A DNA stretch of 64,000 bases from Patescibacteria group bacterium (GTDB lineage: Bacteria; Patescibacteriota; Microgenomatia; UBA8517): assembly GCA_035260845.1 (NCBI GenBank), contig DATFUL010000003.1, positions 11,067 through 75,066 of the forward strand, in the 5' to 3' direction. The notes beneath the pieces are model-generated. The model was not told the DNA's origin and made no database searches. It was given only the letters and a program-made list of their open reading frames with translations. Positions 34,422 through 64,000 of this stretch are shown piece after piece. Each line of letters starts with the position of its first letter. The stretch's first letter is position 1. A program made the translations under genes and the position numbers.

Positions 34422-34462
34422 AATTCATATATTGTAGCTGAAGTTGGAAAAAAGGGGAAATC

Positions 34463-35124: not shown

Positions 35125-35153
35125 TTGACATATGCAACTAAGTTGCGTATGAT
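35125..35153 (+). promoter_or_regulatory. Sigma70-like promoter (TTGACA, 17-nt spacer, TATGAT) with a 6-1-6 palindrome GCAACT-A-AGTTGC in the spacer. Candidate Zur/Fur-family operator.
   Basis: ttgaca at 35125-35130, tatgat at 35148-35153, palindrome at 35134-35146 (extended ATGCAACTAAGTTGCGTAT, 15/16 symmetric). It lies directly before the zur ORF. The -10 element is only about 7 nt from the first ATG, so the transcript is leaderless or the start is the downstream ATG. Confidence 0.45.
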
Positions 35154-35159
35154 AGAGGA

Positions 35160-36481: not shown

Positions 36482-36482
36482 T

Positions 36483-37935: not shown

Positions 37936-37936
37936 A

Positions 37937-39984: not shown

Positions 39985-41988
39985 TCAGAGCCCTATTTTA
40001 ACTTCTTTATCTGTCTTTAGATAGAACTCCTGCTGGGTACGCCCCACTTTAACTGTATAAAGATAATCGTTGGCACCAGGTTGTTTTTGAATCAAAAGTT
40101 TGTATTGACCTTTAACCTTGAACGGCAATTTGTATTGAATAGTGACTTTAGCCAGGCCTTCTGGTCTAAGTTGGAAATACCCCGCAAAAACAGTTTTACC
40201 CAAGTCTTCATATGGATCAGCTTTCGTTTCCACTCCGTCCATGGCAACAAGTGTGCTTCCTTTGGGTACATAAACACGAACCCAGGTTGGTAAGACCGAA
40301 TTAAGCCAGCCATCTTGTTTTTCTGGATTTTTATAAGTAATTACTAAAGTTTTAGTTACAGTTCCATCTCCGGCAATTTTTATATCCTGTTCCACATCTT
40401 CAGTTGAATAAAGATTGGATTTACGTCCTCCTAAATTGGCATCATTTATGTGTAAATAATCACCGTCATAATCTTTGATTACTCCACCAATTCCAAAGTC
40501 TGTGACAGCCTTTTGAACTTTGGGATCATTAATATAAAACAAAACATCTTTTTCCATTACAGAATTAAACACGGCCGAGAAAAGTGCTGCTAATTTTTCT
40601 TTCGGCTGCCCCATTGCATTTGCCAAAATAGAGTTCATTAGGGGTCCAATTATTTTCTTTCTATTTTCAGAGTTTGCGGGGCGCTGAATAATCTTACCTG
40701 TTAATGGATCCCATATAATTGGACCCTCAACGTCTGCATATGCCTCAAGCGCATGAATTACCTGGGAACAATTACACTGCGGGTCAATCGCTGTACTAAA
40801 ATTACCAAATCCGGGAACACCAATCGGCCCGATTACGCTTAACAAGTTATCAAGAACTTTTGTATCAACTGCAATTATGCCATCAATATTCTTGACACCA
40901 ACTTGGGACAAGACCGGAGAAACCATTTCCATACTTTTGGTAAAGTCTGGTGACCAATTCATATCTCTTAAACGCAAATTCTGAGATAAAACGTATGGAC
41001 CTTTTATGTATTTAATAATTGGGTCTGGGGCTTTAATGCTTGGCTTATACTTTGCATCTAAATTATAGATGTCATCGCTTAATGTTGGGTTAAATTTGGC
41101 TTTATCCACCTTCATAATGGCATAGGCCGTCATAAACCCTCCAGTCGGCCTAAGTTCTTTATCGTTTTGGAAAAGGACAAAGTAAGTTCGAGGCGAGTCC
41201 ATTCCAAGAAGGTAGGGTGCATTTTCTATTAAAGGCTTACCATTAACCAAGAGGTTCGAGGTTTCATCAATCAAATCTTGTGCAAGTTTGATATTGCTTC
41301 TTATTTTCTTTCCCTTAATCTCTTCCGGGTACCTTTCTGCTTTAATTTGAGATGTTTCACTTTCCATGACCTTCATCTTTCCGGAAATATTATCTATTTG
41401 AGGAAGAAGGCTTGGCAAACTCTTAACTATAAAGTCAATTCTGTCTTGAGCAGTTTTTGCACCATCCGCTGCTGGAGCTGCCTGTTGACCATTTGTTCCT
41501 TTAAGTCCTAAGAGATCTGAGTATGGCTCTATTGTTGTTATAACAATTTGCCCGGCGTCCATACCGGCTTGTGCTGCGTTAACTGCGTGGCCAAGATCAG
41601 AAACATAACCACCAAAATATGGAATTATTCTAGTCCAGGAAAGTAAAATGTATGACGTCTTAAAGTCAGAGAGGGCTTTACTGGTTGATGTGATTTGGGT
41701 TTTTATCTGAGATAAATCTTGTGATTTGGCGGAAGATTCCAGATTTTTAATCGATTTATACAAAACAAGGCCTTTTTGATATGTTAAAAATGCAGGGATT
41801 CCTACAGCAACTAAAAGTATCAAAATAAAAGCCATAATGCCTACTCCCACCCTAAGGAAAGCACTAGTAGGGTTTTTTACTTCTTCTCTTGCCTCCATGG
41901 CTTCCGGGGCCCCTGCATCTACTTCAATCTTAGGAATCAAAACTGAATCAGGCTCAATTTGAGGAATATTAATTTCGTCGACAGTCAT
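39985..41988 (-). CDS. Large N-terminally anchored extracytoplasmic protein (667 aa). Possibly a DUF4012-type protein of the kind found next to priming sugar transferases.
   Basis: A cytoplasmic N-terminus of about 45 aa, one TM (VGVGIMAFILILLVAVGIPAFL), then a long exported domain. Immediately upstream of the phosphoglycosyl transferase gene. The family assignment is from memory of typical locus architecture, not from a motif. Confidence 0.4.
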   Translation of the reverse strand: MTVDEINIPQIEPDSVLIPKIEVDAGAPEAMEAREEVKNPTSAFLRVGVGIMAFILILLVAVGIPAFLTYQKGLVLYKSIKNLESSAKSQDLSQIKTQITSTSKALSDFKTSYILLSWTRIIPYFGGYVSDLGHAVNAAQAGMDAGQIVITTIEPYSDLLGLKGTNGQQAAPAADGAKTAQDRIDFIVKSLPSLLPQIDNISGKMKVMESETSQIKAERYPEEIKGKKIRSNIKLAQDLIDETSNLLVNGKPLIENAPYLLGMDSPRTYFVLFQNDKELRPTGGFMTAYAIMKVDKAKFNPTLSDDIYNLDAKYKPSIKAPDPIIKYIKGPYVLSQNLRLRDMNWSPDFTKSMEMVSPVLSQVGVKNIDGIIAVDTKVLDNLLSVIGPIGVPGFGNFSTAIDPQCNCSQVIHALEAYADVEGPIIWDPLTGKIIQRPANSENRKKIIGPLMNSILANAMGQPKEKLAALFSAVFNSVMEKDVLFYINDPKVQKAVTDFGIGGVIKDYDGDYLHINDANLGGRKSNLYSTEDVEQDIKIAGDGTVTKTLVITYKNPEKQDGWLNSVLPTWVRVYVPKGSTLVAMDGVETKADPYEDLGKTVFAGYFQLRPEGLAKVTIQYKLPFKVKGQYKLLIQKQPGANDYLYTVKVGRTQQEFYLKTDKEVKIGL

Positions 41989-42009
41989 ACAGTAAATAGT
42001 ATCACAAAA

Positions 42010-42657
42010 TTATACAGCGTTCTTTCCACTAATCATTACGAACGGAGTTTTGGCGATTATCATTAGATCCATTAAAAGCGATTTCTTACGGGCATAGTTT
42101 GCATCCATTTCGATACGTTTATCAAAATTTATGCTGCTCCTTCCGGAAACCTGCCAAAAACCGGTAATACCTGGCTTAACAGTCTGGGTTTCTTTGACAT
42201 ATTTAGCAGTATTTGGATAAACTTTTTGCTGTTCTTCAAGCTCAAGTGCGTGATATGGCCTGGGACCCACAAGACTCATGTCCCCCTTAAGAACATTAAA
42301 AAGTTGAGGCATTTCGTCGATGGAAAACTTTCTTATAAATTTACCAAATTTGGTAACTCTGGGGTCTTCATGCAGTTTAAAATTAGACCTCTTCCATTCT
42401 GTATAAAGCTTTTTAAATTTTGGGTCCCGTGTTAATACTGAGTCTGAATAAACTGGCATAGACCTAAATTTAAAAAGTCTAAAGATTTTGCCATTTTTAC
42501 CAATTCGTCTCATGTGTGAGTTTCCCGGCTCAACCAATACCGGTCCGGGAGCTGTGATTTTAATAATAATTGCTGTAAGAAGCATTACAGGTAAAAATAA
42601 AATAATTAGGAAAAGAGAGGTGGCAACATCAATTATGCGTTTTAAAAAATCATACAT
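42010..42657 (-). CDS. Monotopic (small, PglC-like) polyprenyl-phosphate phosphoglycosyl transferase, the priming enzyme of glycan assembly
   Basis: Single N-terminal TM plus the bacterial sugar-transferase domain: DEMPQLFNVLKGDMSLVGPRP, PGITGFWQVSGR. Confidence 0.85.
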   Translation of the reverse strand: MYDFLKRIIDVATSLFLIILFLPVMLLTAIIIKITAPGPVLVEPGNSHMRRIGKNGKIFRLFKFRSMPVYSDSVLTRDPKFKKLYTEWKRSNFKLHEDPRVTKFGKFIRKFSIDEMPQLFNVLKGDMSLVGPRPYHALELEEQQKVYPNTAKYVKETQTVKPGITGFWQVSGRSSINFDKRIEMDANYARKKSLLMDLMIIAKTPFVMISGKNAV

Positions 42658-42664
42658 ATAATTT

Positions 42665-43807
42665 CTAGAGGAGATCTGTTCTTTTTTCCGCCTTTAACTT
42701 TTCTACAATCTTTTTAACATCCTGTGCGTGGCTTTTTGACATAACCAATAGAGCCTCTTTTGTATCTACAATAACAAGATTATCTACATCAATAACTGCA
42801 ACAAGCCTACCATCTGTGTGGATTAAAGCATCTGTTGTATCAATATTGACTACTTCTCCACCTTCCTCTTCACCTGAAATTATTACATTCCCCTGACTAT
42901 CCTTAGGAAGATTTTTCCAAACCTCATTCCAGTCTCCAATGTCAGTCCAATTATAATCAGCCAAAATCATAAAGAAATTATTTGCTTTTTCTGAAACTGC
43001 ATAATCAACTGATATTTTTTCAAATTTTTTATACTCGCGCATCATCGTTTCAGATAAAGTTGGTTTTCCAATGTGATTAGCTATATCTTTCATACCTTTT
43101 GACAAAATGGGTGCATATTTTTCGATTGCAGAAAGAAAGGCATCTGCTCTCCAAACATAATGGTTGGCATTCCAAAAATATTCTCCTGAGTCTGTAAATT
43201 TTTTAGCTAATTCTATCGGTGGCTTCTCTACAAACTTATCTAATTTAAAAACAAATCTACCCTCAGAAACATCTACTTTTTCACCTTTTTTAAGATGCCC
43301 CATTCCTGTATGTGGATATAAAGGTTTTATTCCGATTGACATTAAACATTTGTTTTCAAACGCATATTTAGAAGCTGCGAACATGGTTTTTTCATAATTA
43401 AGTTGAGGGCTTACAAAATGGTCTGAAGCGGCGTTTATTATAACCGCATCAGGATCCTTATTGAGGATAAAAGTTGCTCCAAGTGCGTGAGCGGCAGCAC
43501 TGTCTTTTCTTTCCGGCTCAACCAATACGTTTTCCTTTGGAATTTTTGGGAGAAGTTCTTTAATTTTATCACCATAGGATTTAGTTGTTGTTACAACAAA
43601 TATTTTTTCCCACGGGAGCATTTTACTTAAACGTTCGCCTGTAATTTCTGTCAAAGTCTTACCACCAAATATCTTTAAAAATTGCTTAGGAGTTTTTTCA
43701 AGAGACTTTGGCCAAAGACGCGTGCCTCCGCCTCCTGCCAAAATTAGTGCGTACAAGTGCTTCTTGTAATTGTCTTTTGAAAATCGTTTTAGAAAACTTT
43801 CGAGCAT
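42665..43807 (-). CDS. manC: Mannose-1-phosphate guanylyltransferase (GDP-mannose pyrophosphorylase, ManC type without a PMI domain)
   Basis: YALILAGGGGTRLWPKS...PKQFL (NTP-transferase G-loop), then a left-handed beta-helix-free cupin-like C-terminus. The real start is probably downstream of the annotated ATG, which reduces the 110-nt overlap with the next gene. Confidence 0.75.
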   Translation of the reverse strand: MLESFLKRFSKDNYKKHLYALILAGGGGTRLWPKSLEKTPKQFLKIFGGKTLTEITGERLSKMLPWEKIFVVTTTKSYGDKIKELLPKIPKENVLVEPERKDSAAAHALGATFILNKDPDAVIINAASDHFVSPQLNYEKTMFAASKYAFENKCLMSIGIKPLYPHTGMGHLKKGEKVDVSEGRFVFKLDKFVEKPPIELAKKFTDSGEYFWNANHYVWRADAFLSAIEKYAPILSKGMKDIANHIGKPTLSETMMREYKKFEKISVDYAVSEKANNFFMILADYNWTDIGDWNEVWKNLPKDSQGNVIISGEEEGGEVVNIDTTDALIHTDGRLVAVIDVDNLVIVDTKEALLVMSKSHAQDVKKIVEKLKAEKRTDLL

Positions 43808-44825
43808 TTGTTCTTAATATTCTCTCACTAAATCGCATTTTAGCAAACTTTTCAACTCCCTGCATTAAACTTTTCACAGTCTGAGATTTGAATAGAACTC
43901 CAGTTTTACCATCTACAACCGTATCTAATGCTCCACCTTTTTTATAAGCTATAACAGGTACAGACCTTCCTTGAGCTTCGACTGCAACAATGCCAAAATC
44001 CTCTTCCTGGGGCATAATGAGTGCGATTGCATGTCGATAGTATTCAGATAGCCTTTTTTCAGAAACTTTACCAACAAATTTTATATTAGGCTTTGCAATC
44101 TTCATCAATTTCTTTTTCTCTCTTCCGGCTCCAACGATAACTAGCGGATCTTGAAGTTTATTGAAGGCCTTAATTGCTAGATCAACTTTCTTATAACCAT
44201 AATCTAATCTTGATACTAACAAGTAGTATTTTTTGGATTTTGACTTACGAGCGACTACTTCTACTGGTGGAAATATTATTTCTGAATCTCTTTTATAATA
44301 TTTACTTATCCGTTTTTGAACCTCAGTTGAAATTGCAATGATTTTATCGGGCCGACCCGCAGCTTTTTTATCCCACCATTTTAGATAACTGACAATTGGC
44401 TTAGTGACAGCTTTAAAGGCGGGGTCTTTAAAGTATTCATCGTAATGGCTCCACAAATACCGTGTCGGTGTCAGGCAATAACAAATATGGACTGTACCTG
44501 GTTTTATTTTGATGCCTTTTGCCGCTTCCGAAGTTACTGAAATAACTAAATCAAAATCTGAGAAATCAAACGATTCAAATGCGAATGACATAAAAGTGGC
44601 TAAAAATTCATGGTTGTTTTTGGCAAAAGGAATATTTTGCAAAAATGAAGTTTTTATACTGGGAAAAACTTTTGCCCATTTTGCTTGTTTTGAGTCATAT
44701 ACCGAAGTATAAAGAGGGGCTTCGGGAAACATTTCATGGATCGCTAGAAGAACACGTTCAGCGCCACCCCATTTATTTACCCGATCGTAGACTATCGCTA
44801 CTTTCTTTTTTAATTGCTTCTGCAT
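43698..44825 (-). CDS. GT4-family (GT-B) glycosyltransferase
   Basis: Glycos_transf_1-type C-terminal domain with the E-x7-E-like region (VPVIAYKKGGALDTV). Confidence 0.75.
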   Translation of the reverse strand: MQKQLKKKVAIVYDRVNKWGGAERVLLAIHEMFPEAPLYTSVYDSKQAKWAKVFPSIKTSFLQNIPFAKNNHEFLATFMSFAFESFDFSDFDLVISVTSEAAKGIKIKPGTVHICYCLTPTRYLWSHYDEYFKDPAFKAVTKPIVSYLKWWDKKAAGRPDKIIAISTEVQKRISKYYKRDSEIIFPPVEVVARKSKSKKYYLLVSRLDYGYKKVDLAIKAFNKLQDPLVIVGAGREKKKLMKIAKPNIKFVGKVSEKRLSEYYRHAIALIMPQEEDFGIVAVEAQGRSVPVIAYKKGGALDTVVDGKTGVLFKSQTVKSLMQGVEKFAKMRFSERILRTNARKFSKTIFKRQLQEALVRTNFGRRRRHASLAKVS

Positions 44826-45912
44826 ATATATCTAGAGTTTCTTTGGCCATTTTAGCCCAAGAATATTTTTTTACAAATTTTTGCCCCTCCAAAATTTTAT
44901 TTTTTCTTTCATTTGGATTCATTTCTATAGCAGCTTTCATTATTTTCTCGATTGAAGAAAAGTCTAATTGATTAAAATATAGAGCGTGATTAGTGTAGAT
45001 TTCCTTAAAAACAGGAATCTCTGATGCAAGTACTAATGCACCAGCATTCATGGCTTCAAGTCCAGGAAGACCAAATCCTTCAGAAAGAGATGGAAATACA
45101 AACCCTAATGATTTTTGATACAACCCACCAAGTTCATTGTCTGGTACAAATCCAACAAGTTTAACCAAAACCTCAGCCTTCAAGTCAGCTACTATTTTTT
45201 CAAGCCTTTTTGTAAAAACATTTCTGGCAGATGCAATCACTAAAATTATCTTTTTATCACGATTAGTATTCAAAAGTACCAGGGCCTGAATCAATCTTTT
45301 TAAGTTTTTGTGGGGATAAGCATTACCCGTATAAACAAAATAGGGATTTTCAAATTTAAGATTATTTGAAGAAGATATATTGTTATCGAGCCCTTCGTAA
45401 GTCACAGTGATTTTGTTTTGTGTCGTCGGATATTTTTTAACTAGCTCACTTTTTATTGCATGGCTGGGAACTATAATCCTAATGGATTTATTAACAGCTG
45501 TATCAAAAACTAAACGATATGCCGATCTTTTAATAAAATATATTGGAGCGGGTAGTGTTGTTGCCAACATCCCAGACTGCGTATGCATCAAAAGATCGTG
45601 AATCGTAACTACATAAGGCCCTTTGTAAAAAATAGGGACATTGAAATGGGGGAAATGAACCAAATCTGGGTTTTGATTTTTAATAAGACCTGGAAGAATA
45701 AATTGTTCCTGAAAGCTATAATGCCTAAAGTCTGCAAGAATTTTCTGCCAATTACTTGGTAATATTAATGAATCAAAATATTTTTTGCGTAGAAGTATTA
45801 CGTACTGAGTAGTTGTATCAGTTTTTGATAATTCAAGAATTAAATTATTTAGATATCTTCCTAAGCCAGCATTCTCAAGTCCATAAAGACGTGCGTCAAT
45901 TAATAGTCTCAT
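44773..45912 (-). CDS. GT4-family glycosyltransferase
   Basis: C-terminal GFVFPSLSEGFGLPGLEAMNAGALVLASEIPVFKEI (EX7E motif). Confidence 0.8.
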   Translation of the reverse strand: MRLLIDARLYGLENAGLGRYLNNLILELSKTDTTTQYVILLRKKYFDSLILPSNWQKILADFRHYSFQEQFILPGLIKNQNPDLVHFPHFNVPIFYKGPYVVTIHDLLMHTQSGMLATTLPAPIYFIKRSAYRLVFDTAVNKSIRIIVPSHAIKSELVKKYPTTQNKITVTYEGLDNNISSSNNLKFENPYFVYTGNAYPHKNLKRLIQALVLLNTNRDKKIILVIASARNVFTKRLEKIVADLKAEVLVKLVGFVPDNELGGLYQKSLGFVFPSLSEGFGLPGLEAMNAGALVLASEIPVFKEIYTNHALYFNQLDFSSIEKIMKAAIEMNPNERKNKILEGQKFVKKYSWAKMAKETLDIYAEAIKKESSDSLRSGK

Positions 45913-47105
45913 CTTTGCGTATTTAAATAAATTTTATCAAGATATTCACTCATTTTGTCCCAACTGTAATTTTCCTCAACCAACTTTCGCGCATTTTCGG
46001 CAATCCGTTTTGCTTTTTTTGGATCGAGTAATATATCGACAACCCCATCTGCTAATAATTTTGGGGTGTCTCGGACAATAATGTTTAGGCCGTCCTTTGC
46101 TCCCAAACCTTCTGCACCAACTGAAGTGGTTATAAGAGGAAGTTTAGAAGCCATTGCAGCAAAATGTTTTAATCTGGTTCCTCCAGGCCCCTGTAGTGGT
46201 GAAACAAAAACAGAAGATTCGTAATAACATTTACGGATACTCTCCTGGTCATCTTCTTTTAAACTGTCAATAATAATATTTTTTGATCTAAATTTTGAAA
46301 TCTCTTCTGGAATAAACTGGCCAACAATCCATAATTTTGCAGTTTTATTTTTTTCTCGAATAAGTGGAAAGACTTTGTTCAAAAGTAGTTCAGCAGCTTC
46401 AACGTTTTGTAGCCACTTAAAATTTGCAACAAAAAGTATTTTTGGAATTTTATTATTCCAATTTTCTTTTTGTTTAAAAAAATCAAGGTTTACCCCGTTA
46501 GGAACCAGGCCCACATCAAGATTTGGAGCAAGCTTAATCATTTCTTTTTTATCAGCCGCCGATACAGCAACAACCCCATCAGCTTTTTTCCAAAATCTGG
46601 TTTCCCAAAAACGCAACTTTGCAACATCAATCGATAGAACTAATTTCAAAAATGGATTTTTCAGACTTTCAACATAGTGTTTGTAAACCAAATATTCGAT
46701 TGTTTGTTCGACAAGAAGAATTGGGATTTTTGTGTCTGGAATATGAGGCATTACATAAAATGTCTCGGCATGAATTAAATCATACTTATTTATCTTGATT
46801 TCTTCCTTAACAGCTTTTTTTTCTTGAGACGACAGGTTACGGATTACCAAAAATGGATAAGGACCAAATCCAGTCAAAAGTATGTTCCGCAAAGTCCAAG
46901 GTGACTTTGATCTTTTAAAAACCATCACTTTTTTGCAATACTTCTCAAGTTCCACAACAAAACGTTTTTCGGAACTATCTTTTATTAAAGAGAAAAGTGT
47001 GATCTCGTGCTTCTTACTTAAATCACGTATTAAATTATATGAACGGATTTGTCCGCCTGAAGAGTCAGGAAATGGCAAATATGGGGTTAACATTAATATC
47101 TTCAT
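45909..47105 (-). CDS. GT4-family glycosyltransferase
   Basis: C-terminal VFVSPLQGPGGTRLKHFAAMASKLPLITTSVGAEGL (GT4 C-terminal motif), GT-B two-domain length. Confidence 0.75.
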   Translation of the reverse strand: MKILMLTPYLPFPDSSGGQIRSYNLIRDLSKKHEITLFSLIKDSSEKRFVVELEKYCKKVMVFKRSKSPWTLRNILLTGFGPYPFLVIRNLSSQEKKAVKEEIKINKYDLIHAETFYVMPHIPDTKIPILLVEQTIEYLVYKHYVESLKNPFLKLVLSIDVAKLRFWETRFWKKADGVVAVSAADKKEMIKLAPNLDVGLVPNGVNLDFFKQKENWNNKIPKILFVANFKWLQNVEAAELLLNKVFPLIREKNKTAKLWIVGQFIPEEISKFRSKNIIIDSLKEDDQESIRKCYYESSVFVSPLQGPGGTRLKHFAAMASKLPLITTSVGAEGLGAKDGLNIIVRDTPKLLADGVVDILLDPKKAKRIAENARKLVEENYSWDKMSEYLDKIYLNTQR

Positions 47106-48580
47106 TTTGATTTAGATACAGGCTCTGTAAGATTGATTATTATATATTTATCAGTTTTTTCGATTGTCTTGAAGCGAGATTCAATCATTTTTGTGTCAGC
47201 ACTTCCCAAGTCCACTGAAACATAATAACTGGCTCCTTCTTTAATAATATTATCTATTGAATTATCAATTGCGGGCCAACCCTTTCTTTTTGTTTGATAA
47301 AGGAAGGCGGTATCTCCATTATATGGTGCAACAACAATAGAATTTTTTGGCGTAATTTTATCTACCTCATTACCCGCCTCAATAATTTCTGGGTGATTTA
47401 CGATGTAATCGCCTTTAACCTGAAACCAACCCGTAATAAGCATTATTAAAATAGAAAAAATCAGGATCGATCTTGCTAGGATTTTATTAAAAACTTGTTG
47501 ATTCCATAAATAAATACTTCCAGAAGCCAGTGTGAGGGCAATCACGGGAATTACCAATATCTGATAATAGTCGTGCATTACGTTTGCATCAGCAACAAGA
47601 ACTACATAAAAAATAAACCCGGCAAGAAACCAATGAATAAAAAGATTTTTAACTTTAGTGTTTAAAATTCCAAAAACAAATGGGATTAAGCCAAGCGAGC
47701 CAAGAATCAAGTGTCCTAAGCGCTCTCCAAAAATCCAATTCCAATAAGCTGGGTGAAATCTTATTCCGTTGCCGTTAAATGCCCACCAAAAAAGTGGAAT
47801 GCCGGCCGGAAATCTTGATTCCCAAATTCTCCATAGAATAAAGGGTAAAAATGCAATTGCGAAATAAAGTAGTGAATTAAATAAAAGTTTTTTGTTCTTG
47901 AAAATATTCCTAAAGCCATATTTCAGATTAAAAAGATATGCAATTGGAAAAAGATAAAATCCAAGATAAGGCTTAATTAGAAGCATTAAAGCAGCAAAGA
48001 CTGCAGAAAGATATAAATAGGCATTTCCAGAATCATCAAAAAATTTTACAAATGCCCAAATAGAAATTACCCCAAATGTTACTCCCATTGGATCAGGTAA
48101 AATTACACGTGTAAAATAAATATTAAAGGGTATAAACAGATAAAACAAAGCTGATAAAAGCCCGCCAGTACTTCCTAAAAATCTTTTGCCAATTAAATAT
48201 AAAAAGAAAGAAGTGGTAAGTGCAAAAAAAATAGTTATCAATCGTGACCAAACTTCAAGTGATAGTTTGGGAAATGTATTTGTTGATACTGCAGCAATGG
48301 CATTATATATAGGAAACTCAACCATTCTATAGCCATTTGGATTAAAAATACGCGATTGAATACTACTTATGTCGTCAAATTTGGGAATAAGAAGGTTAAT
48401 TCCATTTTGGATATATGTTCGAGTAACTGAAGCCGTGTCCGCTTGGCGCCAGCTATGCCAATCAGCAATTGGGTTATTTATCTTGTAAAGTCTGACAAGA
48501 AAACCAAGAATTAGAATCAATGATAACAAAAAGTACTCTATTTTTTGTGGATTCAGAATATGAATCGATTTATTGTTCAT
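47102..48580 (-). CDS. GT-C-fold membrane glycosyltransferase (PMT/ArnT-like, GT39/GT83-type) that uses a polyprenyl-phosphate-sugar donor
   Basis: About 11-12 TM segments; the first extracytoplasmic loop carries WHSWRQADTASV (an acidic loop motif typical of PMT_2/ArnT-like enzymes); large C-terminal soluble domain. Confidence 0.6.
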   Translation of the reverse strand: MNNKSIHILNPQKIEYFLLSLILILGFLVRLYKINNPIADWHSWRQADTASVTRTYIQNGINLLIPKFDDISSIQSRIFNPNGYRMVEFPIYNAIAAVSTNTFPKLSLEVWSRLITIFFALTTSFFLYLIGKRFLGSTGGLLSALFYLFIPFNIYFTRVILPDPMGVTFGVISIWAFVKFFDDSGNAYLYLSAVFAALMLLIKPYLGFYLFPIAYLFNLKYGFRNIFKNKKLLFNSLLYFAIAFLPFILWRIWESRFPAGIPLFWWAFNGNGIRFHPAYWNWIFGERLGHLILGSLGLIPFVFGILNTKVKNLFIHWFLAGFIFYVVLVADANVMHDYYQILVIPVIALTLASGSIYLWNQQVFNKILARSILIFSILIMLITGWFQVKGDYIVNHPEIIEAGNEVDKITPKNSIVVAPYNGDTAFLYQTKRKGWPAIDNSIDNIIKEGASYYVSVDLGSADTKMIESRFKTIEKTDKYIIINLTEPVSKSK

Positions 48581-49958: not shown

Positions 49959-49960
49959 AT

Positions 49961-51155: not shown

Positions 51156-51158
51156 AAA

Positions 51159-51755: not shown

Positions 51756-51756
51756 T

Positions 51757-54011: not shown

Positions 54012-54049
54012 ATCTCCTTTCTTCGTAGCAAACTTTGCTTATAAGCATA

Positions 54050-56184: not shown

Positions 56185-57455
56185 TTTTCGAGTTTATATA
56201 AAGCATAGCCATCACCAAGATTAGATAATTCAATTACCTTGCGGGCACCGCCCGAAGAAATTTCCCAAATTCCAGAACTATCAAAATTATATCCTTTTTG
56301 ACTGAGAGCATATATAACATTTGCATTAGGATAGTCAATTTCTGAAAGTAAATTCTTTCCATATTTAAATTCAAGATAGTAACGTAAAACATATGCTCTT
56401 TTATCAAAATCTAAGACTTCAGAAACATTAAAATCACCTGTTGTGTCATTTGCAATTATTTTACTAGCATTATCAATATCTGAAACTTTTAGGCCATTTG
56501 GCATCCCTGTTGGAGAATTAAACGATACTTTATATGAAGAAAGACTCAAAAATAAATATAAGCATATAAAAAACGCACCTGCAATTTTATTCCATTTGAA
56601 TAGCCGTACTAGCAGTATTCCACCTAATATTGCAGCAATTGGCCAAAATGACAATAAATAATAATAATTAAAGTTTGCATCACTTCGATGCTGCAAAGTA
56701 TCAATAAAATATTGAAAAATTGTCCTTGTTTGATAAAAATTGTGCCGTAAATCAAAAATCACCAAAGGTAGATTTCCTACTATGATTCCTGAAGCGAAAA
56801 AAATAATACTTTTTAGCTTATTTTTACTTTTCCAAATATTTATTAATAAAACAAAAATAGCAATTGGTGCAAACAGAACTTGAAGACCTATACCTACACC
56901 ACTAAGGAGACCTAAAAGAAAAACATATCCAAACTTTTCTTTTTGAAAATTAAGATATGAAAAATAGAATATTAATATTCCAATCAGTGGAAGATAGTTG
57001 TAACTCCAAATAAAAAGTGAATGGTAAATCATAAAATCGTTAAATAAAAAGAGAAAGGTAGAAGCTAACGCCAACTTTTCCCCTAACGTCTTTTTAATTA
57101 CAAGGTAAATAATAATTCCAGTGAATAAATTTAAAAACGTAAAGAAGATTGTAATGATAATTGGATTGTAGTCAGAGATTAAAAGTAAAGGAACTAACGA
57201 ATAATTAAACAATGCTCCTGAATAAATAACATGCGAATTACTATCTTGCCGGAAATATTCTTGACCCAAAAGGCTTGGTTTCACTTTTATATAGTTAGCT
57301 GAGACAATCAAACTACGAGCTTGCTCCGACCAAAAAGTAACCCTATTTGGATAGTTATAAAACCGCACAAAAGAGGCCAAAATCAATATAACTATTATTA
57401 GAATGTTATTTTTCTTTAATAAGTTTTTCAAAAAGTTCTTCATATTGTTTTGCAA
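56181..57455 (-). CDS. Polytopic membrane protein, possibly a third GT-C-fold glycosyltransferase
   Basis: About 11 TM segments in the N-terminal 300 aa plus a C-terminal soluble domain of about 110 aa; no firm motif. Confidence 0.35.
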   Translation of the reverse strand: MQNNMKNFLKNLLKKNNILIIVILILASFVRFYNYPNRVTFWSEQARSLIVSANYIKVKPSLLGQEYFRQDSNSHVIYSGALFNYSLVPLLLISDYNPIIITIFFTFLNLFTGIIIYLVIKKTLGEKLALASTFLFLFNDFMIYHSLFIWSYNYLPLIGILIFYFSYLNFQKEKFGYVFLLGLLSGVGIGLQVLFAPIAIFVLLINIWKSKNKLKSIIFFASGIIVGNLPLVIFDLRHNFYQTRTIFQYFIDTLQHRSDANFNYYYLLSFWPIAAILGGILLVRLFKWNKIAGAFFICLYLFLSLSSYKVSFNSPTGMPNGLKVSDIDNASKIIANDTTGDFNVSEVLDFDKRAYVLRYYLEFKYGKNLLSEIDYPNANVIYALSQKGYNFDSSGIWEISSGGARKVIELSNLGDGYALYKLEK

Positions 57456-58347
57456 TTATGTCCCAAGAAAACTTTTCGGCTTGTTTCCTTGGTTTACTAC
57501 CCCAATCTGTATCCAACCCCTTTTTTAAGGCAACCGCATATTTTTCAGTATTTATTGGATCAACTAAAATTCCTGCATCTCCTACTATTTCCTTACGGAT
57601 TGGATCGTCACTTGCAACTACAGGGAGGTTTGTAGCCATTGCTTCAACAAGTACATTGCCAAATGCCTCAGATGACGCAGACGGAAGTGTAAAAACATCA
57701 GCTACGCGATAAGCTTCGGGCATTTTATCAAATGGAAGGCTAATAATTTGAAATTTATTTCCCAACATGGCATTCCCCATTTCTTCGAGATTATTCCTCA
57801 AATTTCCGCCGCCGCCAACTATTAATAGACTAAAGTTCTTAAGTTTTGATACAGCTTTGATTGCAAGATCTAATCTTTTTTGCTCTGTAAAGGCTCCCAC
57901 AGCCAACACAATCGGGCTTTTAAGGCTAGTTTTTATAATTTTTCCTTTCTGGGTAAACTTATAAAGATCAACGCCGTTGGGGATCGTTTCTATATTAACT
58001 AATGGGTTAATATTTTTAGCCCAAAGAGCGGCTTTAGAAGTAAGGGCAACAAAAGTATTTGGGAAAGATAAAAGATTTAACTTGTCATCCCAGCCCATCC
58101 CGGATTGCCCGGAAACAATTACTTTTGCACCGGTCAGCCAAGCAATTTTTCTAACAATAAACACCTGAAGTCTTCCGTTTGTTGGAATTAGTATGTCGTA
58201 CCTTTTTTTAAAGAAATCTAAATATTTAATATTACTTATGACATCTACTTGGTGATTTTTAGAAAGCCGACGCGAAAGTTCATAAACAAAAGTCTCAGCT
58301 CCACGAGAAACTTTATTTTGATATTTATTTATAAACGCAATTTTCAT
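57406..58347 (-). CDS. GT4-family glycosyltransferase (short)
   Basis: VFTLPSASSEAFGNVLVEAMATNLPVVASDDPIRKEIVGDAGILVDP (EX7E). Confidence 0.8.
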   Translation of the reverse strand: MKIAFINKYQNKVSRGAETFVYELSRRLSKNHQVDVISNIKYLDFFKKRYDILIPTNGRLQVFIVRKIAWLTGAKVIVSGQSGMGWDDKLNLLSFPNTFVALTSKAALWAKNINPLVNIETIPNGVDLYKFTQKGKIIKTSLKSPIVLAVGAFTEQKRLDLAIKAVSKLKNFSLLIVGGGGNLRNNLEEMGNAMLGNKFQIISLPFDKMPEAYRVADVFTLPSASSEAFGNVLVEAMATNLPVVASDDPIRKEIVGDAGILVDPINTEKYAVALKKGLDTDWGSKPRKQAEKFSWDIIAKQYEELFEKLIKEK

Positions 58348-59690
58348 TTCTTGGGAATTAATATTTCTATACCATCTATTTTTTCTTTCAATTTATAGTT
58401 TAAAATTACATAGTCATAAACTTTTTGTGGCTTATAAGACGCTAGCCCTGATTCTGAATAATCCTGAAGTAAAATTAATCTTGGCTTTGAAGCTATGAGA
58501 TCAGCAACCTCTCTGTCTTGAACACCTTGAATTTCTTGATACCAATAAAGTTGCGGCACCCAAGGATTGGTAGCGGGGAGAGTGTTGGTTAGTGCATAAA
58601 CGTTGTCCCACCAATTCATAACAAATATTTTGTCCCCCGGTGTTGTATTATTTTTAACATAGTTAGCAACATCCGAAACATCGCTTTCAAAAAAACGAGT
58701 GCCTTCCTGCCAATTCCTTATAAAAAAATTGGTGAATAAATAAATACTCACAAGGGCATAGAGTGCAATAAACATCTTTAAAAACCGATCACGTTTGTTT
58801 AGATTAGTAAGGACAATAGCTGATGACATCGCTAAAAACGGAAGACCGGGTTGAAAATGAAAAAATTCAAATCTTGGGTAAGCCGTCATGCTCCCCGCAA
58901 GTGCCCAAAGTGGCAAGTTAGCCACTTTACTTTTCATTTTTATGAAATATGGAATAAAAATCGAAAACGGAAAAAGTGCTATTAACATATTTTTAAGATC
59001 CGGAAACTGAATTTGTCCTTGTGATCTCGGTAAAACAAATACCCCAAACTTAATAGCCCATTCGTAAAAATTGGGCAGATTTCCCCAAAACAATGTTGCC
59101 AAAAAGTAAATTATTACTGTAACAGTTCCCCCATAAATAAAATCTCTATATTTCTTTAATGAAAAAATAATGGGTATTAAAAACCAAATTGCAGTTTGTT
59201 TTGTAAAAAACATAATAACCCAAAGAACTCCTGCCCAAAGATATTTTTTCTTATGAATAAGAAAAAATACAAATAAAGAAATCGGAGCAATCATTGAATC
59301 AAACCAAAGTCCGTTTCCATCATAAAACACTTGCCAAAATACAAATAGTGAAACGGCAATTATTGCAACTTTTTTACTATTAAATAGCAAGCTATTCTTA
59401 TTCGATAACTTATTTATAACCCAAAAAAGCAAGAAGTCTGTAAAAATGATAACAGCCCATGTATAAATCTTTAATTGGAAAACACCGACTCCAAAAACTT
59501 TGTATATGAGTGAAAGTATAATTAATAAATTAGGTGTATGGGCAATTGCGATATCTCTATAAGGCAACAGTCCATGAACAATTAAATAAGGCCAAAGAAG
59601 CATTTCTGGCCATGCCGTAAATTTTAATTTTAATAACAAGAATAGATGTAATGCTAGAATGATTACCAGGAGCGAAGGAAATTTCTTCAT
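58344..59690 (-). CDS. Polytopic membrane protein, possibly a GT-C/GT87-like mannosyltransferase
   Basis: About 12 TM segments and a C-terminal soluble domain; no firm motif. Confidence 0.35.
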   Translation of the reverse strand: MKKFPSLLVIILALHLFLLLKLKFTAWPEMLLWPYLIVHGLLPYRDIAIAHTPNLLIILSLIYKVFGVGVFQLKIYTWAVIIFTDFLLFWVINKLSNKNSLLFNSKKVAIIAVSLFVFWQVFYDGNGLWFDSMIAPISLFVFFLIHKKKYLWAGVLWVIMFFTKQTAIWFLIPIIFSLKKYRDFIYGGTVTVIIYFLATLFWGNLPNFYEWAIKFGVFVLPRSQGQIQFPDLKNMLIALFPFSIFIPYFIKMKSKVANLPLWALAGSMTAYPRFEFFHFQPGLPFLAMSSAIVLTNLNKRDRFLKMFIALYALVSIYLFTNFFIRNWQEGTRFFESDVSDVANYVKNNTTPGDKIFVMNWWDNVYALTNTLPATNPWVPQLYWYQEIQGVQDREVADLIASKPRLILLQDYSESGLASYKPQKVYDYVILNYKLKEKIDGIEILIPKK

Positions 59691-60391
59691 ATTTTTTTTG
59701 CAATTATTGTCATACTGTCACCCATATTTAACATTGTAGACACAAACGATAATGGGAAGGTTAAAAGGTCATACAAGAATGATTTTCTTTTTAATTCTAA
59801 GAGGGGATTTGAATATTCAAAAAGACCAGAGCGCGACTGCCACAAAAGTATTTTAAACCCGGTATTTTTAAATACTTTGAAAATACTATCTTTTGTAAAC
59901 TGCCATTTATGCTCATTTGGTAATTTGTAGGGCCAATGGTCACCAAAAATCTTTGCTGGAATTCCACCGGCATTTGGAACATCAACAAAAACAAGCCCAT
60001 TATTTTTTAACAAACTGTTTACTTTTTTTAGAACAAAGATAGGATCTTCCATATGCTCCAGGGTATGGTTTAATATAACTAAATTAAATGAATTTTTTGG
60101 AATATCCAACTTTTCAAAATATCCTTTATATACCTTTATCCCCTTTTTCTTAGCTATTTCAGAACTACCGGAGGGTTCTACCCCAAAGACTTCAAATCCA
60201 TTCTCCTTAAATATTTCTAAAAAAATCCCGGTTGAAGAACCAATTTCCAAAACTCTGCCTTTTTTAATATATCTTTTGATTAATTTGTAACGTGTTAAAA
60301 AAATATTTCTGAAAGTCGATGAATACTTTTCATAATCATAATCTCTATGGTATTTTTTATAGTTAACGTCCATTAATATTTTAATATCCAA
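59687..60391 (-). CDS. Class I SAM-dependent methyltransferase
   Basis: Motif I RVLEIGSSTGIF, motif post-I FEVFGVEPS, LVILNHTLEHM. Confidence 0.8.
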   Translation of the reverse strand: MDIKILMDVNYKKYHRDYDYEKYSSTFRNIFLTRYKLIKRYIKKGRVLEIGSSTGIFLEIFKENGFEVFGVEPSGSSEIAKKKGIKVYKGYFEKLDIPKNSFNLVILNHTLEHMEDPIFVLKKVNSLLKNNGLVFVDVPNAGGIPAKIFGDHWPYKLPNEHKWQFTKDSIFKVFKNTGFKILLWQSRSGLFEYSNPLLELKRKSFLYDLLTFPLSFVSTMLNMGDSMTIIAKKI

Positions 60392-61217
60392 CTCTACCTA
60401 TCCATATTTTTCTTTTTATTTTCCTTAGTGGAGTTTCTACAAATGCCCTAGTTTTAAATTTAAAACTGGAAATACCCCAGGGGCTTTGTATAAATTCCGG
60501 CTTGGTTTTAAATAAGACTTCAGGATAGAAAAAATCCTTAGGAAAATTTTGACCAAATTCATATTTATATTTTTTGTTTCTTTTAATTACATTTAAATCG
60601 TCTTTTAAGGCCCTTCCACGCGGAACAAAAGTGGCGTGAAGATATGGAGCATCTATAAATTCTATTTTGTCTATATTTCTATCTTGAATCATTTTATTTT
60701 CAAAGTCAGACCATCCCCAAACACCATGAACTCCCTGTGAATGAAGACCTGGAATACTTCTATTTATAGCCCGCAGATTGTAATGTCCAACTCTACTCCC
60801 AAATTTATAACGGCCGGCTGAACTATCTTGGAAATGAAATATATCCCCAACTAAATTTAATGTTGGAACAACGACTGATTCAAGACTGGGATTAGTCTCT
60901 ATTGTCTTTACAACACTTACGATTGAGTTATTCCACCAAATTTCGTCAGCATCGACCATCAAAAACCAATCCGACTCTGTTGCGTCAAGCATTTCTTGGC
61001 GTACCTTTGTAAAGTCCGTACTAGTACTTATATTTCTCTCTTTAAAAATAATTTTTTCCGGATAAAGCTTTTTTAATTCCTTTGCAATTTCGATACTGCC
61101 ATCAGTGCTACCTGTATCCCAAAGCAAAATCTTGTCTACAAAATTAATTACTGAATTTACAGAAAACCATAACCATCTGGCCTCGTTTTTAACTAATGTG
61201 TGAGCCCAGATCTCCAT
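60381..61217 (-). CDS. GT2-like glycosyltransferase (KNE-type N-terminus)
   Basis: TLVKNEARWL...ILLWDTGSTDGS and a DADE acidic motif (MVDADEIWW). Confidence 0.5.
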   Translation of the reverse strand: MEIWAHTLVKNEARWLWFSVNSVINFVDKILLWDTGSTDGSIEIAKELKKLYPEKIIFKERNISTSTDFTKVRQEMLDATESDWFLMVDADEIWWNNSIVSVVKTIETNPSLESVVVPTLNLVGDIFHFQDSSAGRYKFGSRVGHYNLRAINRSIPGLHSQGVHGVWGWSDFENKMIQDRNIDKIEFIDAPYLHATFVPRGRALKDDLNVIKRNKKYKYEFGQNFPKDFFYPEVLFKTKPEFIQSPWGISSFKFKTRAFVETPLRKIKRKIWIGRVGY

Positions 61218-61267
61218 AGGACTATTGTATCCTTTTTAATCTCGAATTTCTGCTAGAATAGTCTAGA

Positions 61268-63157
61268 ATGTGTGGAATTGCAGGCAAGGTTTACTTCACA
61301 AAGAATAAAGATGTCCACCCACAGGAAATTAAATTGATGACCACTTCAATTGCTCATCGCGGTCCTGATGATGAAGGAATCTTTATTTCAAAAGACAAGA
61401 AGGTTGGTCTTGGAAGCCGCAGGCTTGCAATAATAGATTTAAGTCAGAGAGGACACCAACCGATGACCTATTTAAATAGATATACGATCACATTCAATGG
61501 TGAAATATATAATTTTCAATTCGAAAAAGAGAAACTAAAAAAGTTGGGTTATCAATTTAATTCAGACTCAGACACTGAAGTAATCTTGGCCCTATATGAT
61601 AAATATGGGAAAAAGTGTTTAGATCACCTAAGAGGTATGTTTGCTTTTGCAATTTATGATGAGGTGCAAAGAACAATATTCTTGGCAAGAGACAGAATCG
61701 GCAAAAAACCTCTTAAATATTTTCTAAATGATGATGTCTTAATATTTGCTTCAGAACTTAAGGCAATCCTAACCCAATCGGGAGTAAAGAAAATAGTTGA
61801 TTACAAAGCGATTCAACTTTATATGACTTATGGTTACACTCCGGCTCCGTACACAGGTTTTGAAGGCATTAAAAAACTAGAACCCGGAAGTTATATTTTT
61901 ATCAACTTAAAAAGTCGGTCTTTTGAAAAAATTAGATATTGGGAGCCAATGTTTGATCACAAGCTAAACTTATCCGAAAAGGAGTGGTGTAAAAAAATAT
62001 TAGAGACCCTTGAGGAATCGACCCGTCTTAGAATGATTGCGGACGTACCAGTTGGAGCATTTCTTTCTGGAGGAGTTGATAGCAGTGGAGTTGTCGCAAC
62101 CATGGCTGGACTATCAACAAAACCAATCAAGACTTTTACTATTTCTTTTACCGATAGTGATTTAAATGAGAGTCAGCATGCAGGAAGAATTGCTAAACTT
62201 TACAAAACTGATCACCATATACTTCCCGCCAAACCACAATCAACCGATATATTGCCGTTTTTGGCTAAACAATATGAGGAACCTTTCGCAGATGCAAGCA
62301 ACGTAGTTACCTATATGGTTTCTGAAATGACCAGGAAATTTGTGACAGTAGCATTAAATGGAGATGGTGGGGACGAAAACTTTGCCGGTTACCCAAATAG
62401 ATACATGCGATTAAAACGAGATGTAGATTACGACAACTGGATACAAGACTTAAGACCATCAGCGGTAGTAGCTTTAGAGGCATTATCGAAAATGGGTAAC
62501 TTAAAAACAGTTTCTAAAGCTAAAAAATTCTTTGACAATGCTAAAAAACCAATTTATGAAAGATTTGCCTCATATAATAAAATATTCGACCAAGAGGAGA
62601 TTTTTAAGTATTCAAAAGGAAAATTACTTGAGGAGCAAAATAACAATAACCCATATCAAATCGTTGACGAATGTTTTAGTAATTTTGAAGGAAAAGATCT
62701 AAAAGACGCAGGACTCAAGTTTGACCTTATGTATTTTTTACCGGACCAACTCCTTGCAAAGGTAGACATTGCATCAATGGCAGCATCTCTGGAAGCCCGA
62801 TCCCCTTTACTTGATCAAAACATGATAGAGCTTGCTGGTACCATTCCATTTAACCTCAAAGTAAAACATGGGGAGTCAAAGTACATACTAAAAAAGGCTT
62901 TTGAAAAGATAGTTCCCAAAGAGAATCTCTACCGACCCAAGGTAGGATTCACAATTCCACTTGAGAGATGGTTCTCTGGAAAATTAAATAGTTATGCAGA
63001 AAGCATTCTACTTTCTAAAAATACACAAATAAATGAACTTCTAGATAAAGATTATATTAAACGAATGGTTGAGGATAAAAACAAAAGTGAAGATTTTGGC
63101 CCCAGACTCTGGTCTCTTATGTCTCTTGAACTCTGGTTTAGGTCTTATTTCAACTAA
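61268..63157 (+). CDS. asnB: Asparagine synthetase B-type glutamine amidotransferase. In this context it is likely a glycan-modifying amidotransferase.
   Basis: N-terminal nucleophile MCGIAG, PP-loop SGGVDSS, 629 aa. Confidence 0.85.
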   Translation: MCGIAGKVYFTKNKDVHPQEIKLMTTSIAHRGPDDEGIFISKDKKVGLGSRRLAIIDLSQRGHQPMTYLNRYTITFNGEIYNFQFEKEKLKKLGYQFNSDSDTEVILALYDKYGKKCLDHLRGMFAFAIYDEVQRTIFLARDRIGKKPLKYFLNDDVLIFASELKAILTQSGVKKIVDYKAIQLYMTYGYTPAPYTGFEGIKKLEPGSYIFINLKSRSFEKIRYWEPMFDHKLNLSEKEWCKKILETLEESTRLRMIADVPVGAFLSGGVDSSGVVATMAGLSTKPIKTFTISFTDSDLNESQHAGRIAKLYKTDHHILPAKPQSTDILPFLAKQYEEPFADASNVVTYMVSEMTRKFVTVALNGDGGDENFAGYPNRYMRLKRDVDYDNWIQDLRPSAVVALEALSKMGNLKTVSKAKKFFDNAKKPIYERFASYNKIFDQEEIFKYSKGKLLEEQNNNNPYQIVDECFSNFEGKDLKDAGLKFDLMYFLPDQLLAKVDIASMAASLEARSPLLDQNMIELAGTIPFNLKVKHGESKYILKKAFEKIVPKENLYRPKVGFTIPLERWFSGKLNSYAESILLSKNTQINELLDKDYIKRMVEDKNKSEDFGPRLWSLMSLELWFRSYFN

Positions 63158-64000
63158 ACCAGTAATACTTAATTGCAATTGTCCACATATAAATTGCAAG
63201 TAAAATATTGGTTACTGCAAGTGTTATAGCTGGGCCGATTACTCCAAACTTTGGTATTAAAACAAGATCGAATCCAAACATAATGGCTAACTGAACAACT
63301 GAGAAAAATCCAATAAATTTTGGTTTTTTCATTGAATAAACAATTGCCGAAACAGCAGGTACTGAGAGAATGAATGGAATGTTGGCAAGTGCCAAAGCTC
63401 TAAAGACAGGAACTGAATCAAGGTATTTTGGAAAAATTAAAAGCATGAAAGGTTTTGCGATTATTGCCCAAAAAATTATTCCAAAAATTATAGGAATAGT
63501 AACTAGAACAGCTTTAAGTATGTAGGTTCTTTCTTTTTCTTTATTACCAAAACCGGCTAAACGTGTTGCAAGTACTGCAGAAAAACTACCCCCAAGAACA
63601 ATAATAAAAGACGCCAACTTAGAAGGAATTGAATAAACAGCAGTAGACAAAGCTCCTAGTAGAGCCGCCATCATTTGTACATCCAAGTTTCCCGAAACCG
63701 CTGAAGTTATCCTGCTTACCCCAAGCCATCCAGAAAACCTAAAAAGCTTTTTATATATCTCAAGTTCCGGTTTAGTCCTAAAAAAATCAGTGCCTACAAG
63801 AATAAATCCAAAAAAACCTGCCGCCAATCCACCAAATATGTATGATCCAAAGACATTATATAAAGAGGTCCCTCCTATATATATTAGTATAAAAAGCGCA
63901 CCAAGGCGTGTAATCATAAAAACCAAATCAGTTGAGACCGCACCTAAGAAATTCTTCCTAGCCTGAAGAACATATGGCAAAAACATCCACAAAAAGAAGG
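63150..64000 (-). CDS. Partial CDS (C-terminal about 280 aa; continues past the window end). Wzx-like oligosaccharide flippase (MOP superfamily).
   Basis: About 8 TM segments in the visible part, Gly-rich amphipathic helices; the frame stays open to the window edge. Confidence 0.5.
   Translation of the reverse strand, partial: FFLWMFLPYVLQARKNFLGAVSTDLVFMITRLGALFILIYIGGTSLYNVFGSYIFGGLAAGFFGFILVGTDFFRTKPELEIYKKLFRFSGWLGVSRITSAVSGNLDVQMMAALLGALSTAVYSIPSKLASFIIVLGGSFSAVLATRLAGFGNKEKERTYILKAVLVTIPIIFGIIFWAIIAKPFMLLIFPKYLDSVPVFRALALANIPFILSVPAVSAIVYSMKKPKFIGFFSVVQLAIMFGFDLVLIPKFGVIGPAITLAVTNILLAIYMWTIAIKYYWFS

Follow-up and report, generated by a model that had tools for sequence, protein, structure and literature searches.

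A conserved gene locus probably devoted to cell-envelope glycan assembly in Woesebacteria-type Microgenomates

Bacteria of the Candidate Phyla Radiation (CPR, or Patescibacteria) live attached to other cells, and their surface chemistry is almost unknown. A 64,000-nucleotide stretch from a Patescibacteria group bacterium (contig DATFUL010000003.1, positions 11,067 to 75,066; the whole stretch is hereafter called the window) contains a dense block of glycan-related genes, which extends from position 39985 to the window end. This block raises the question of whether it is an accessory, variable island equipped with unusual enzymes, as an initial annotation of the sequence had proposed, or a standing part of the chromosome. 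The results described below favour the second answer: the block probably encodes the machinery for assembling a cell-envelope glycan, conserved and vertically inherited in a Woesebacteria-type clade of the Microgenomates and located in the backbone near the dcw cluster, and an S51-family hydrolase gene embedded in it is probably not a component of this pathway. The literature searched did not contain a description of this locus. Its building blocks and overall architecture are already known from Gram-positive wall-polysaccharide loci, and the added interest lies in a conservation that is unusual for a surface-glycan locus, in the backbone position near dcw, and in two uncharacterised conserved members. 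With over 20 genes beside the division cluster, conserved in order and sequence throughout a clade, the locus is a good candidate for the source of the main wall polymer; if so, it would matter for attachment to hosts, recognition by phages and attempts at cultivation.

Gene content and conservation of the locus

The open reading frame (ORF) listing gives 22 densely packed genes from 39985 to the window end. Protein families were assigned using the Pfam gathering scores as cut-off unless stated otherwise. The features are listed below together with one gene outside the locus (GT, glycosyltransferase; TM, transmembrane; aa, amino acids).

29573 to 30631, plus strand: LCP (LytR-CpsA-Psr) phosphotransferase, about 10 kb outside the locus (LytR_cpsA_psr, 108 bits)
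39985 to 41988, minus strand: DUF4012 protein of 667 aa, the last gene of the locus (DUF4012, 81 bits)
42010 to 42657, minus strand: priming phosphoglycosyl transferase of 215 aa, PglC-like in size (Bac_transf, 199 bits)
42665 to 43807, minus strand: ManC, mannose-1-phosphate guanylyltransferase without the phosphomannose isomerase (PMI) domain (NTP_transferase and ManC_GMP_beta-helix)
43698 to 44825, 44773 to 45912 and 45909 to 47105, minus strand: three cytoplasmic GT4 enzymes without TM helices (Glycos_transf_1 and Glyco_transf_4)
47102 to 48580, minus strand: GT-C copy a, at least 8 TM helices (PMT_2, 56 bits)
48570 to 49958, minus strand: Wzy_C membrane protein, at least 9 TM helices (Wzy_C, 39 bits against a cut-off of 31.7)
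49961 to 50527, minus strand: 188-aa membrane protein, no Pfam match (listed ORF 49961-50560)
50529 to 51155, minus strand: S51 (PepE-like) serine hydrolase with a class I glutamine-amidotransferase-like fold (Peptidase_S51, 97 bits)
51159 to 51755, minus strand: left-handed beta-helix (LbH) acetyltransferase, WcaF-like (Hexapep)
51757 to 52929 and 52926 to 54011, minus strand: two cytoplasmic GT4 enzymes assigned by Pfam, orthologues 50-71% identical
54050 to 55351, minus strand: GT-C copy b, 8 TM helices (PMT_2, 44 bits)
55348 to 56184, minus strand: membrane-linked GT2 with a GT-A fold (Glycos_transf_2, 120 bits)
56181 to 57455, minus strand: GT-C-like copy c, 7 TM helices (PMT_2, 20.5 bits, below cut-off)
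57406 to 58347, minus strand: short GT4 of 313 aa, orthologues 42-67% identical (Glycos_transf_1, 92 bits)
58344 to 59690, minus strand: GT-C-like copy d of 448 aa, at least 9 TM helices and a C-terminal soluble domain, no Pfam match
59687 to 60391, minus strand: S-adenosylmethionine (SAM)-dependent methyltransferase (Methyltransf_23, 90 bits)
60381 to 61217, minus strand: soluble GT2 (Glycos_transf_2, 44 bits)
61268 to 63157, plus strand: AsnB-type glutamine amidotransferase (Asn_synthase and GATase_7)
63150 to 64000, minus strand: Wzx-type (MOP) flippase interrupted by the window end, of which the C-terminal two-thirds are present (Pfam match 63150-63992)

Twenty of the 22 genes match glycan-related or DUF4012 families, and with their order kept in other genomes this places the block well beyond chance. 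The gene list of the initial annotation was largely right, although it counted about 23 genes and seven GT4 enzymes where 22 and six are found. The PglC-like primer, ManC, the two GT2 enzymes, the Wzy_C protein, the LbH acetyltransferase and the SAM methyltransferase that it named all have Pfam matches above the gathering scores, and AsnB is indeed the sole plus-strand gene of the locus. The AsnB-type amidotransferase with its Asn_synthase and GATase domains, the S51-like protein, the LCP enzyme and the flippase running off the window, for which the cut gene gives a Polysacc_synt match, are also borne out. The estimate of two to four GT-C proteins can be replaced by four of GT-C type, two with PMT_2 scores above the cut-off, one below it and one recognized by homology. 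These families fit a cell-surface glycan biosynthesis locus joining a Wzx/Wzy-type route with a GT-C/polyprenyl-phosphate-sugar route, as the annotation had suggested.

The synteny of the locus was mapped using tblastn of the 22 window proteins against homologous loci fetched from relatives (designated L001, L002 and so on), which were found through homologues of the S51 and 188-aa proteins. Orthologues with 45-82% identity are present in eleven distinct loci (L001/L005, L002, L008, L011, L015, L018, L022, L029, L041, L073 and L074), L001/L005 being the complete Woesebacteria chromosome CP066686. Their order is GT2, GT-C, GT4, GT4, LbH, (S51), 188-aa protein, (GT2), Wzy_C and GT-C, followed by GT4, (GT2), GT4, GT4, ManC, priming transferase and DUF4012. 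The AsnB/GT2 end also occurs in L018, L029, L069 and L072, and a metagenome scan with AsnB returned four loci only, including L069. Between the short GT4 and AsnB lies a variable module, in which GT-C, methyltransferase, epimerase, extra GT2 and unknown genes are exchanged among relatives; in the window it includes the methyltransferase gene and GT-C copy d. The locus can be divided into a conserved core, which stretches from the PglC-like gene to the GT2/GT-C pair, and a decoration module at the AsnB end, which varies.

Relatives also carry genes that the window lacks. Extra GT2 genes are found between the 188-aa and Wzy_C genes and between two GT4 genes, and an Exo_endo_phos gene lies within the GT4 run of L002 and L076 (extra genes at 11223-12152 and 16194-17081 in L001; 11198-12118, 16084-16965 and 18074-18817 in L002; 10566-11483 and 15849-16730 in L074). 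Because of these differences, the glycan probably varies in detail between lineages.

The conservation extends into the flanking backbone. DUF4012 is followed by a short RecO gene in L075 and L076, as in the window, and L076 continues with a PD-(D/E)XK nuclease, LCP, a class II tRNA synthetase and MraZ in the order found in the window, so the LCP orthologue occupies the same backbone position. Overall, positions 27448-39558 of the window are syntenic with 12047-22046 of L076, including an unknown protein of about 225 aa before MraZ, and genes for a Zn/Mn ABC transporter, a YibE/F protein and a methionine sulfoxide reductase are inserted in the window relative to L076. The RecO proteins have 181-184 aa, comprising the N-terminal domain and part of the C-terminal domain (window 39010-39558, L075 12068-12613, L076 12047-12601). 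Since the same form stands beside DUF4012 in the window and in both relatives, the short RecO is a feature of the clade rather than a truncated protein.

The composition of the locus is native. The G+C content at third codon positions is 0.281 compared to 0.286 for the other 41 window genes (p = 0.69), the codon-usage distance is within the permutation range (0.89 of the permutations are at or above the observed value), and the G+C profile of the window is flat at 33-41%. No tRNA gene, border repeats or mobility genes were found at the locus edges, and Pfam scans of the locus and flanks revealed no integrase or transposase domain. A promoter and terminator scan gave counts at or below shuffle expectation and was uninformative.

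These data bear directly on the possibility that the locus is an accessory island, acquired horizontally and variable between strains, with S51 and AsnB as dedicated unusual tailoring enzymes. The AsnB end does vary among relatives, with the methyltransferase, two GT-C and extra GT2 or epimerase genes coming and going, and the S51 gene is tightly packed in the operon at the same position in nine species-level loci. However, the core order and the flanks are kept at deep divergence, the composition matches that of the rest of the window, the edges carry no mobility marks, and S51 and the locus each occur without the other, which makes an island highly improbable. The initial annotation had itself named conservation with synteny among relatives as an argument against accessory status, and this is what the comparison revealed; in G+C content and codon usage, which it had proposed to compare, the locus is indistinguishable from the remaining window genes. 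The accessory-island proposal is therefore not supported. Many of the contigs with a CPR-type S51 gene or the whole CPR glycan locus (L004-L052) are titled Gammaproteobacteria, Pseudomonadales, Alphaproteobacteria, Methanoperedens or Woesearchaeota, and these taxon titles are probably wrong.

The S51 hydrolase gene within the operon

The S51 protein had been singled out in the initial annotation as an unusual component of a glycan locus. It is predicted to be a bona fide S51-family serine hydrolase, with Ser122 (in GxSxG), His162 and Glu187 invariant in 20 homologues. Its nearest solved structures are Lmo0363 (3l4e, E 1e-13), DR_1070 and PepE, with 3l4e, 6iru and 6a4t as PDB relatives. Like PepE, Lmo0363 and other S51 peptidases, it has the S51 fold by sequence, the GxSxG nucleophile elbow and the Ser-His-Glu triad. 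Unlike PepE and Lmo0363, it scores below the NCBIfam PepE cut-off (46 bits against 156) and, in this sub-clade, sits inside a glycan operon.

A scan for S51 using one genome per species produced 65 loci, mostly from Microgenomates lineages together with Doudna- and Magasanikbacteria. The gene is accompanied by glycan genes in nine of about 54 species-representative orthologue loci and stands without any conserved neighbour in 42. Conversely, L073 and L074 contain the complete syntenic locus without S51, and there the LbH gene is directly followed by the 188-aa gene. The S51 proteins encoded outside the locus share 61-66% identity with the window protein versus 57-69% for those inside it, and the in-locus genes mostly cluster together in a neighbour-joining tree. 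Because the gene occurs alone in 42 loci and is absent from L073 and L074, S51 is most likely a widespread stand-alone CPR gene that has hitch-hiked in the operon, not a pathway component.

This pattern would be most simply explained if one sub-clade acquired a housekeeping hydrolase gene in its operon through a single insertion. The gene would have landed between the LbH and 188-aa genes and would then have been kept there by the general gene-order stability of small genomes, like RecO beside DUF4012. S51 may have been co-opted in this sub-clade. The case illustrates that a conserved operon position in a streamlined genome is not enough to place a gene in a pathway. L010 and L055 have, close to the conserved S51 gene, a second and divergent S51 paralogue (26-28% identity) that is read from the other strand.

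A proposed assembly route and its alternatives

The gene families and the active-site and topology features given here are observed, whereas we infer the order of chemical steps by following the published scheme for complex Gram-positive wall polysaccharides (PMC8035078). That scheme has a Wzx/Wzy route together with a membrane GT-A, a flippase and a PMT_2-type GT-C, and ends in LCP attachment; it has been described for the secondary cell-wall polysaccharide of Bacillus anthracis and other Gram-positive wall polysaccharides (PMC8035078). The combination of Wzx/Wzy and GT-C enzymes, noted in the initial annotation, is not unusual and already has a published precedent.

In the first step, the PglC-like transferase would load a sugar phosphate onto polyprenyl phosphate at the inner membrane face. 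The small monotopic transferase at 42010-42657 has a WbaP/WcaJ-type catalytic domain (NCBIfam EPS_sugtrans and the C-terminal domains of WbaP and WcaJ), a single N-terminal hydrophobic helix and a D114-E115 pair that is invariant among orthologues, which identifies it by sequence as the predicted priming enzyme on polyprenyl phosphate. Its Bac_transf score and D-E pair are those expected of the initiating phosphoglycosyl transferase of a Wzx/Wzy-dependent pathway.

The six GT4 enzymes and the soluble GT2 would then extend the lipid-linked sugar using nucleotide sugars, including GDP-mannose from ManC. ManC covers positions 2-352 of the 467 in NCBIfam GMP_PMI, and translation probably starts downstream of its listed ATG. 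It is the only nucleotide-sugar gene at the locus and the sole basis for calling the glycan mannose-rich; in L073 its place is taken by a divergent nucleotidyltransferase with 27% identity. The GT4 trio at 43698-47105 has orthologues in the same order with 43-78% identity, and the soluble GT2 has orthologues in L018, L029, L069 and L072 (54-69%). The best NCBIfam model for the third member of the trio (GT4c, 45909-47105) is TIGR03087 (stp1), from the PEP-CTERM/XrtA exopolysaccharide gene set, with a score below the cut-off.

The intermediate would be decorated by the LbH acetyltransferase and here probably also by the methyltransferase and AsnB. The LbH protein scores 100 bits against an NCBIfam WcaF-family subfamily model, below its cut-off, and with orthologues 64-82% identical it is the best conserved among the enzymes tabulated in the locus-wide tblastn map. 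The methyltransferase has a close orthologue in L072 only (72% identity). AsnB has the same position and orientation in L018, L029, L069 and L072. It passes the generic asparagine synthase model TIGR01536, and its best NCBIfam model is TIGR03108, the amidotransferase of exopolysaccharide (EPS) loci of the PEP-CTERM/XrtA type, matched over the full length with 560 bits against a cut-off of 817. Since TIGR03108 belongs to PEP-CTERM/XrtA polysaccharide loci, a role of AsnB in polysaccharide tailoring or sugar amidation is favoured and appears plausible. The best models of both AsnB and GT4c fall in the PEP-CTERM/XrtA set, which hints at a shared ancestral biosynthetic core.

Export of the intermediate would be carried out by the Wzx-type flippase, whose fragment matches Polysacc_synt with 32 bits (cut-off 28.2) at profile positions 129-257 of 274 and has 7 TM helices. 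The full-length orthologue in L069 has 425 aa and is followed by another GT-C-like gene of 521 aa. The Wzy_C protein would then polymerise or transfer the exported intermediate. It has no sequence relative in the PDB. Its external-loop motif is strongly conserved (FEDRSTSIR..VEWP.A.R..NP..GTGYSS..LATDND[FY]LR.LGE.G).

Further residues would be added outside the cell by three to four of the GT-C enzymes from a polyprenyl-phosphate-sugar made by the GT2 at 55348-56184. This enzyme, encoded between two GT-C genes, has two TM helices (223-241 and 249-267), both C-terminal, with D36-D37 and D87-x-D89 invariant and orthologues 59-70% identical. It matches generic GT-A folds in the PDB, including DPMS (5mlz), ArnC and GtrB, and is a candidate polyprenyl-phosphate-sugar synthase for the GT-C enzymes. 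All four GT-C proteins have at least 7 TM helices, and acidic first-loop residues are kept in the copies examined, namely a (D40 and D48 invariant; orthologues 52-75% identical) and b (D24-E25 invariant). Orthologues of copy c are found only in L002, L018, L022 and L029. Copy d is included as the fourth because it aligns with a PMT_2-positive relative, a 31%-identical homologue in L001, in addition to its TM helices. In the last step, the LCP enzyme at 29573-30631, DUF4012 or both would anchor the product in the wall, with peptidoglycan as the most likely acceptor; this LCP enzyme is a candidate for that attachment.

Several results weigh against this reading of the locus. No glycosyltransferase reached any NCBIfam equivalog cut-off when all those of the locus were scored, so no donor, acceptor or sugar is assigned. 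In the PDB sequence comparison, the GT2 at 55348-56184 is no nearer to GtrB, CsbB or DPMS than to the generic GT-A core. The part of the locus within the window contains no match to a GtrA-type flippase, and its 22 genes give no match to a chain-length regulator (Wzz/PCP, CpsC/D), the locus continuing beyond the window. The Wzy_C domain is common to polymerases, ligases and O-oligosaccharyltransferases, and the sequence fits any of these. The LCP gene is about 10 kb away and its tie to the locus is positional only. Finally, S51 has kept its operon place while the sequences diverged to 57-69% identity. As to the flippase, a Wzx-type protein can replace the GtrA-type one in some systems (PMC8035078). 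A 121-aa ORF at 39612-39977 was considered as a GtrA flippase and rejected, having neither a hydrophobic TM-like stretch nor a Pfam match.

The breadth of the Wzy_C family admits general protein O-glycosylation, in which the Wzy_C protein would be a PglL/WsaB-type O-oligosaccharyltransferase acting on S-layer, pilin or sortase-anchored proteins, with the GT-C enzymes extending the oligosaccharide or mannosylating proteins directly. O-oligosaccharyltransferases are among the proteins with Wzy_C domains, and protein mannosyltransferases among those of the PMT_2 family. The locus has a single Wzy_C-family gene and no chain-length regulator among the window genes, its glycosyltransferases (at least 12) suggest one large defined oligosaccharide over a short repeat unit, and its strong conservation is in keeping with a structural glycan whose composition is fixed. 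Sortases are also near-ubiquitous in Microgenomates (PMC6744442). On the other hand, no acceptor protein is encoded in the locus, and the LCP gene and the LCP-like model of DUF4012 point to wall attachment. WaaL/PglL-type enzymes depend on a conserved histidine near the position of the conserved loop, and no invariant histidine is present among 10 Wzy_C orthologues. On balance, protein O-glycosylation is possible but unlikely.

The presence of ManC, GT4, membrane GT2 and GT-C enzymes, families confirmed by Pfam, also mirrors the PimA/PimB, Ppm1 and Mpt set of actinobacterial lipomannan synthesis, and the product could then be a membrane-anchored lipoglycan in place of lipoteichoic acid. However, the primer and the Wzx flippase indicate a polyprenyl-diphosphate-linked intermediate and not a phosphatidylinositol anchor, and no GT4 scored as PimA or PimB in NCBIfam; a lipoglycan therefore seems very improbable. 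A lipid or teichoic-acid pathway was rejected, as the primer, flippase and Wzy_C protein point to a polyprenyl-diphosphate-linked oligosaccharide.

The preferred reading, a wall glycan assembled by a Wzx/Wzy-type route and modified by GT-C enzymes, can be compared with known systems. In common with the Gram-positive scheme, the genes suggest a cytoplasmic polyprenyl-linked subunit, Wzx-type export and a Wzy-family protein, with a membrane GT-A and PMT_2-type GT-C predicted to glycosylate outside the cell and an LCP enzyme present in the genome. In contrast to it, this locus combines four GT-C and six GT4 enzymes in one operon-like block, has no GtrA-type flippase or chain-length regulator in the part seen, includes DUF4012 and the new 188-aa protein as conserved members, and is itself conserved across a CPR clade. 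The rhamnose-rich loci of lactococci and streptococci (cwps, rgp and gac) are likewise large, with conserved and variable decoration parts, and employ GT-C enzymes acting outside the membrane and LCP attachment to peptidoglycan (PMC9574508, PMC10821137), two features which are only proposed here. Those loci make the backbone with an ABC transporter and dTDP-rhamnose genes, whereas neither rhamnose genes nor an ABC exporter are present in this locus.

Two uncharacterised conserved members

The locus draws attention to two widespread uncharacterised families, DUF4012 and the 188-aa membrane protein. A joint reading would make the glycan the principal lineage-defining wall glycopolymer of Woesebacteria-type CPR bacteria, DUF4012 a highly divergent LCP-fold transferase coupling the polyprenyl-diphosphate-linked glycan to its acceptor, and the 188-aa protein a new extracytoplasmic partner of Wzy_C, for example a miniature chain-length or hand-over factor. 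We consider this combination conceivable but rather doubtful. If true, a coupling role of DUF4012 would explain why its gene adjoins the priming transferase in actinobacterial EPS clusters.

The DUF4012 protein, whose gene adjoins that of the priming transferase, has one N-terminal TM helix and a large extracytoplasmic part. Its homologues are 62-84% identical over the full 667 residues and fall into more than 100 database clusters, making it the most conserved among the locus proteins with surveyed homologues. Members of the family are over-represented in CPR and Gram-positive bacteria (PMC6744442). In the exopolysaccharide/capsular polysaccharide cluster of Bifidobacterium longum 105-A, too, a DUF4012 gene is the immediate neighbour of the priming glycosyl-phosphate transferase gene (PMC5412050). 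Unlike that cluster, in which Wzz is next and insertion sequence (IS) elements flank the genes (PMC5412050), the window locus has no Wzz and no IS elements.

The three top PDB matches of the AlphaFold2 (AF2) model of DUF4012 (pLDDT 74) in Foldseek are LCP proteins (3pe5, Cps2A 2xxq and YvhJ 3nxh), with weak scores (probability 0.97-1.00, E 0.004-0.05, TM-score 0.32-0.44). Comparison with LCP using hhalign on shallow alignments aligned the TM helix alone, Pfam gave no LCP match at E up to 10, and Smith-Waterman scores against shuffled sequences gave z = 0.26. Thus, an LCP-like fold of DUF4012 is suggested by the model as a lead, not a result.

The 188-aa protein starts at 50527, which leaves its gene clear of the S51 gene. 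Its homologues form 597 clusters, of which the 120 listed are 54-76% identical, and a set of 1.84 billion proteins contains just 129 representatives. Every syntenic locus encodes this protein, a good marker for such loci. Its AF2 model is confident (pLDDT 90.5) and shows a TM helix and a long C-terminal helix, with a small alpha/beta ectodomain between them. Despite this TM-ectodomain-TM layout, no similarity to Wzz was detected, and searches gave no Foldseek PDB match below E 0.2, no PDB sequence match and no Pfam family. The invariant charged residues of the 188-aa protein are E39, D42, E44, R57, E88, R95, R111 and E112, and H108 is nearly invariant.

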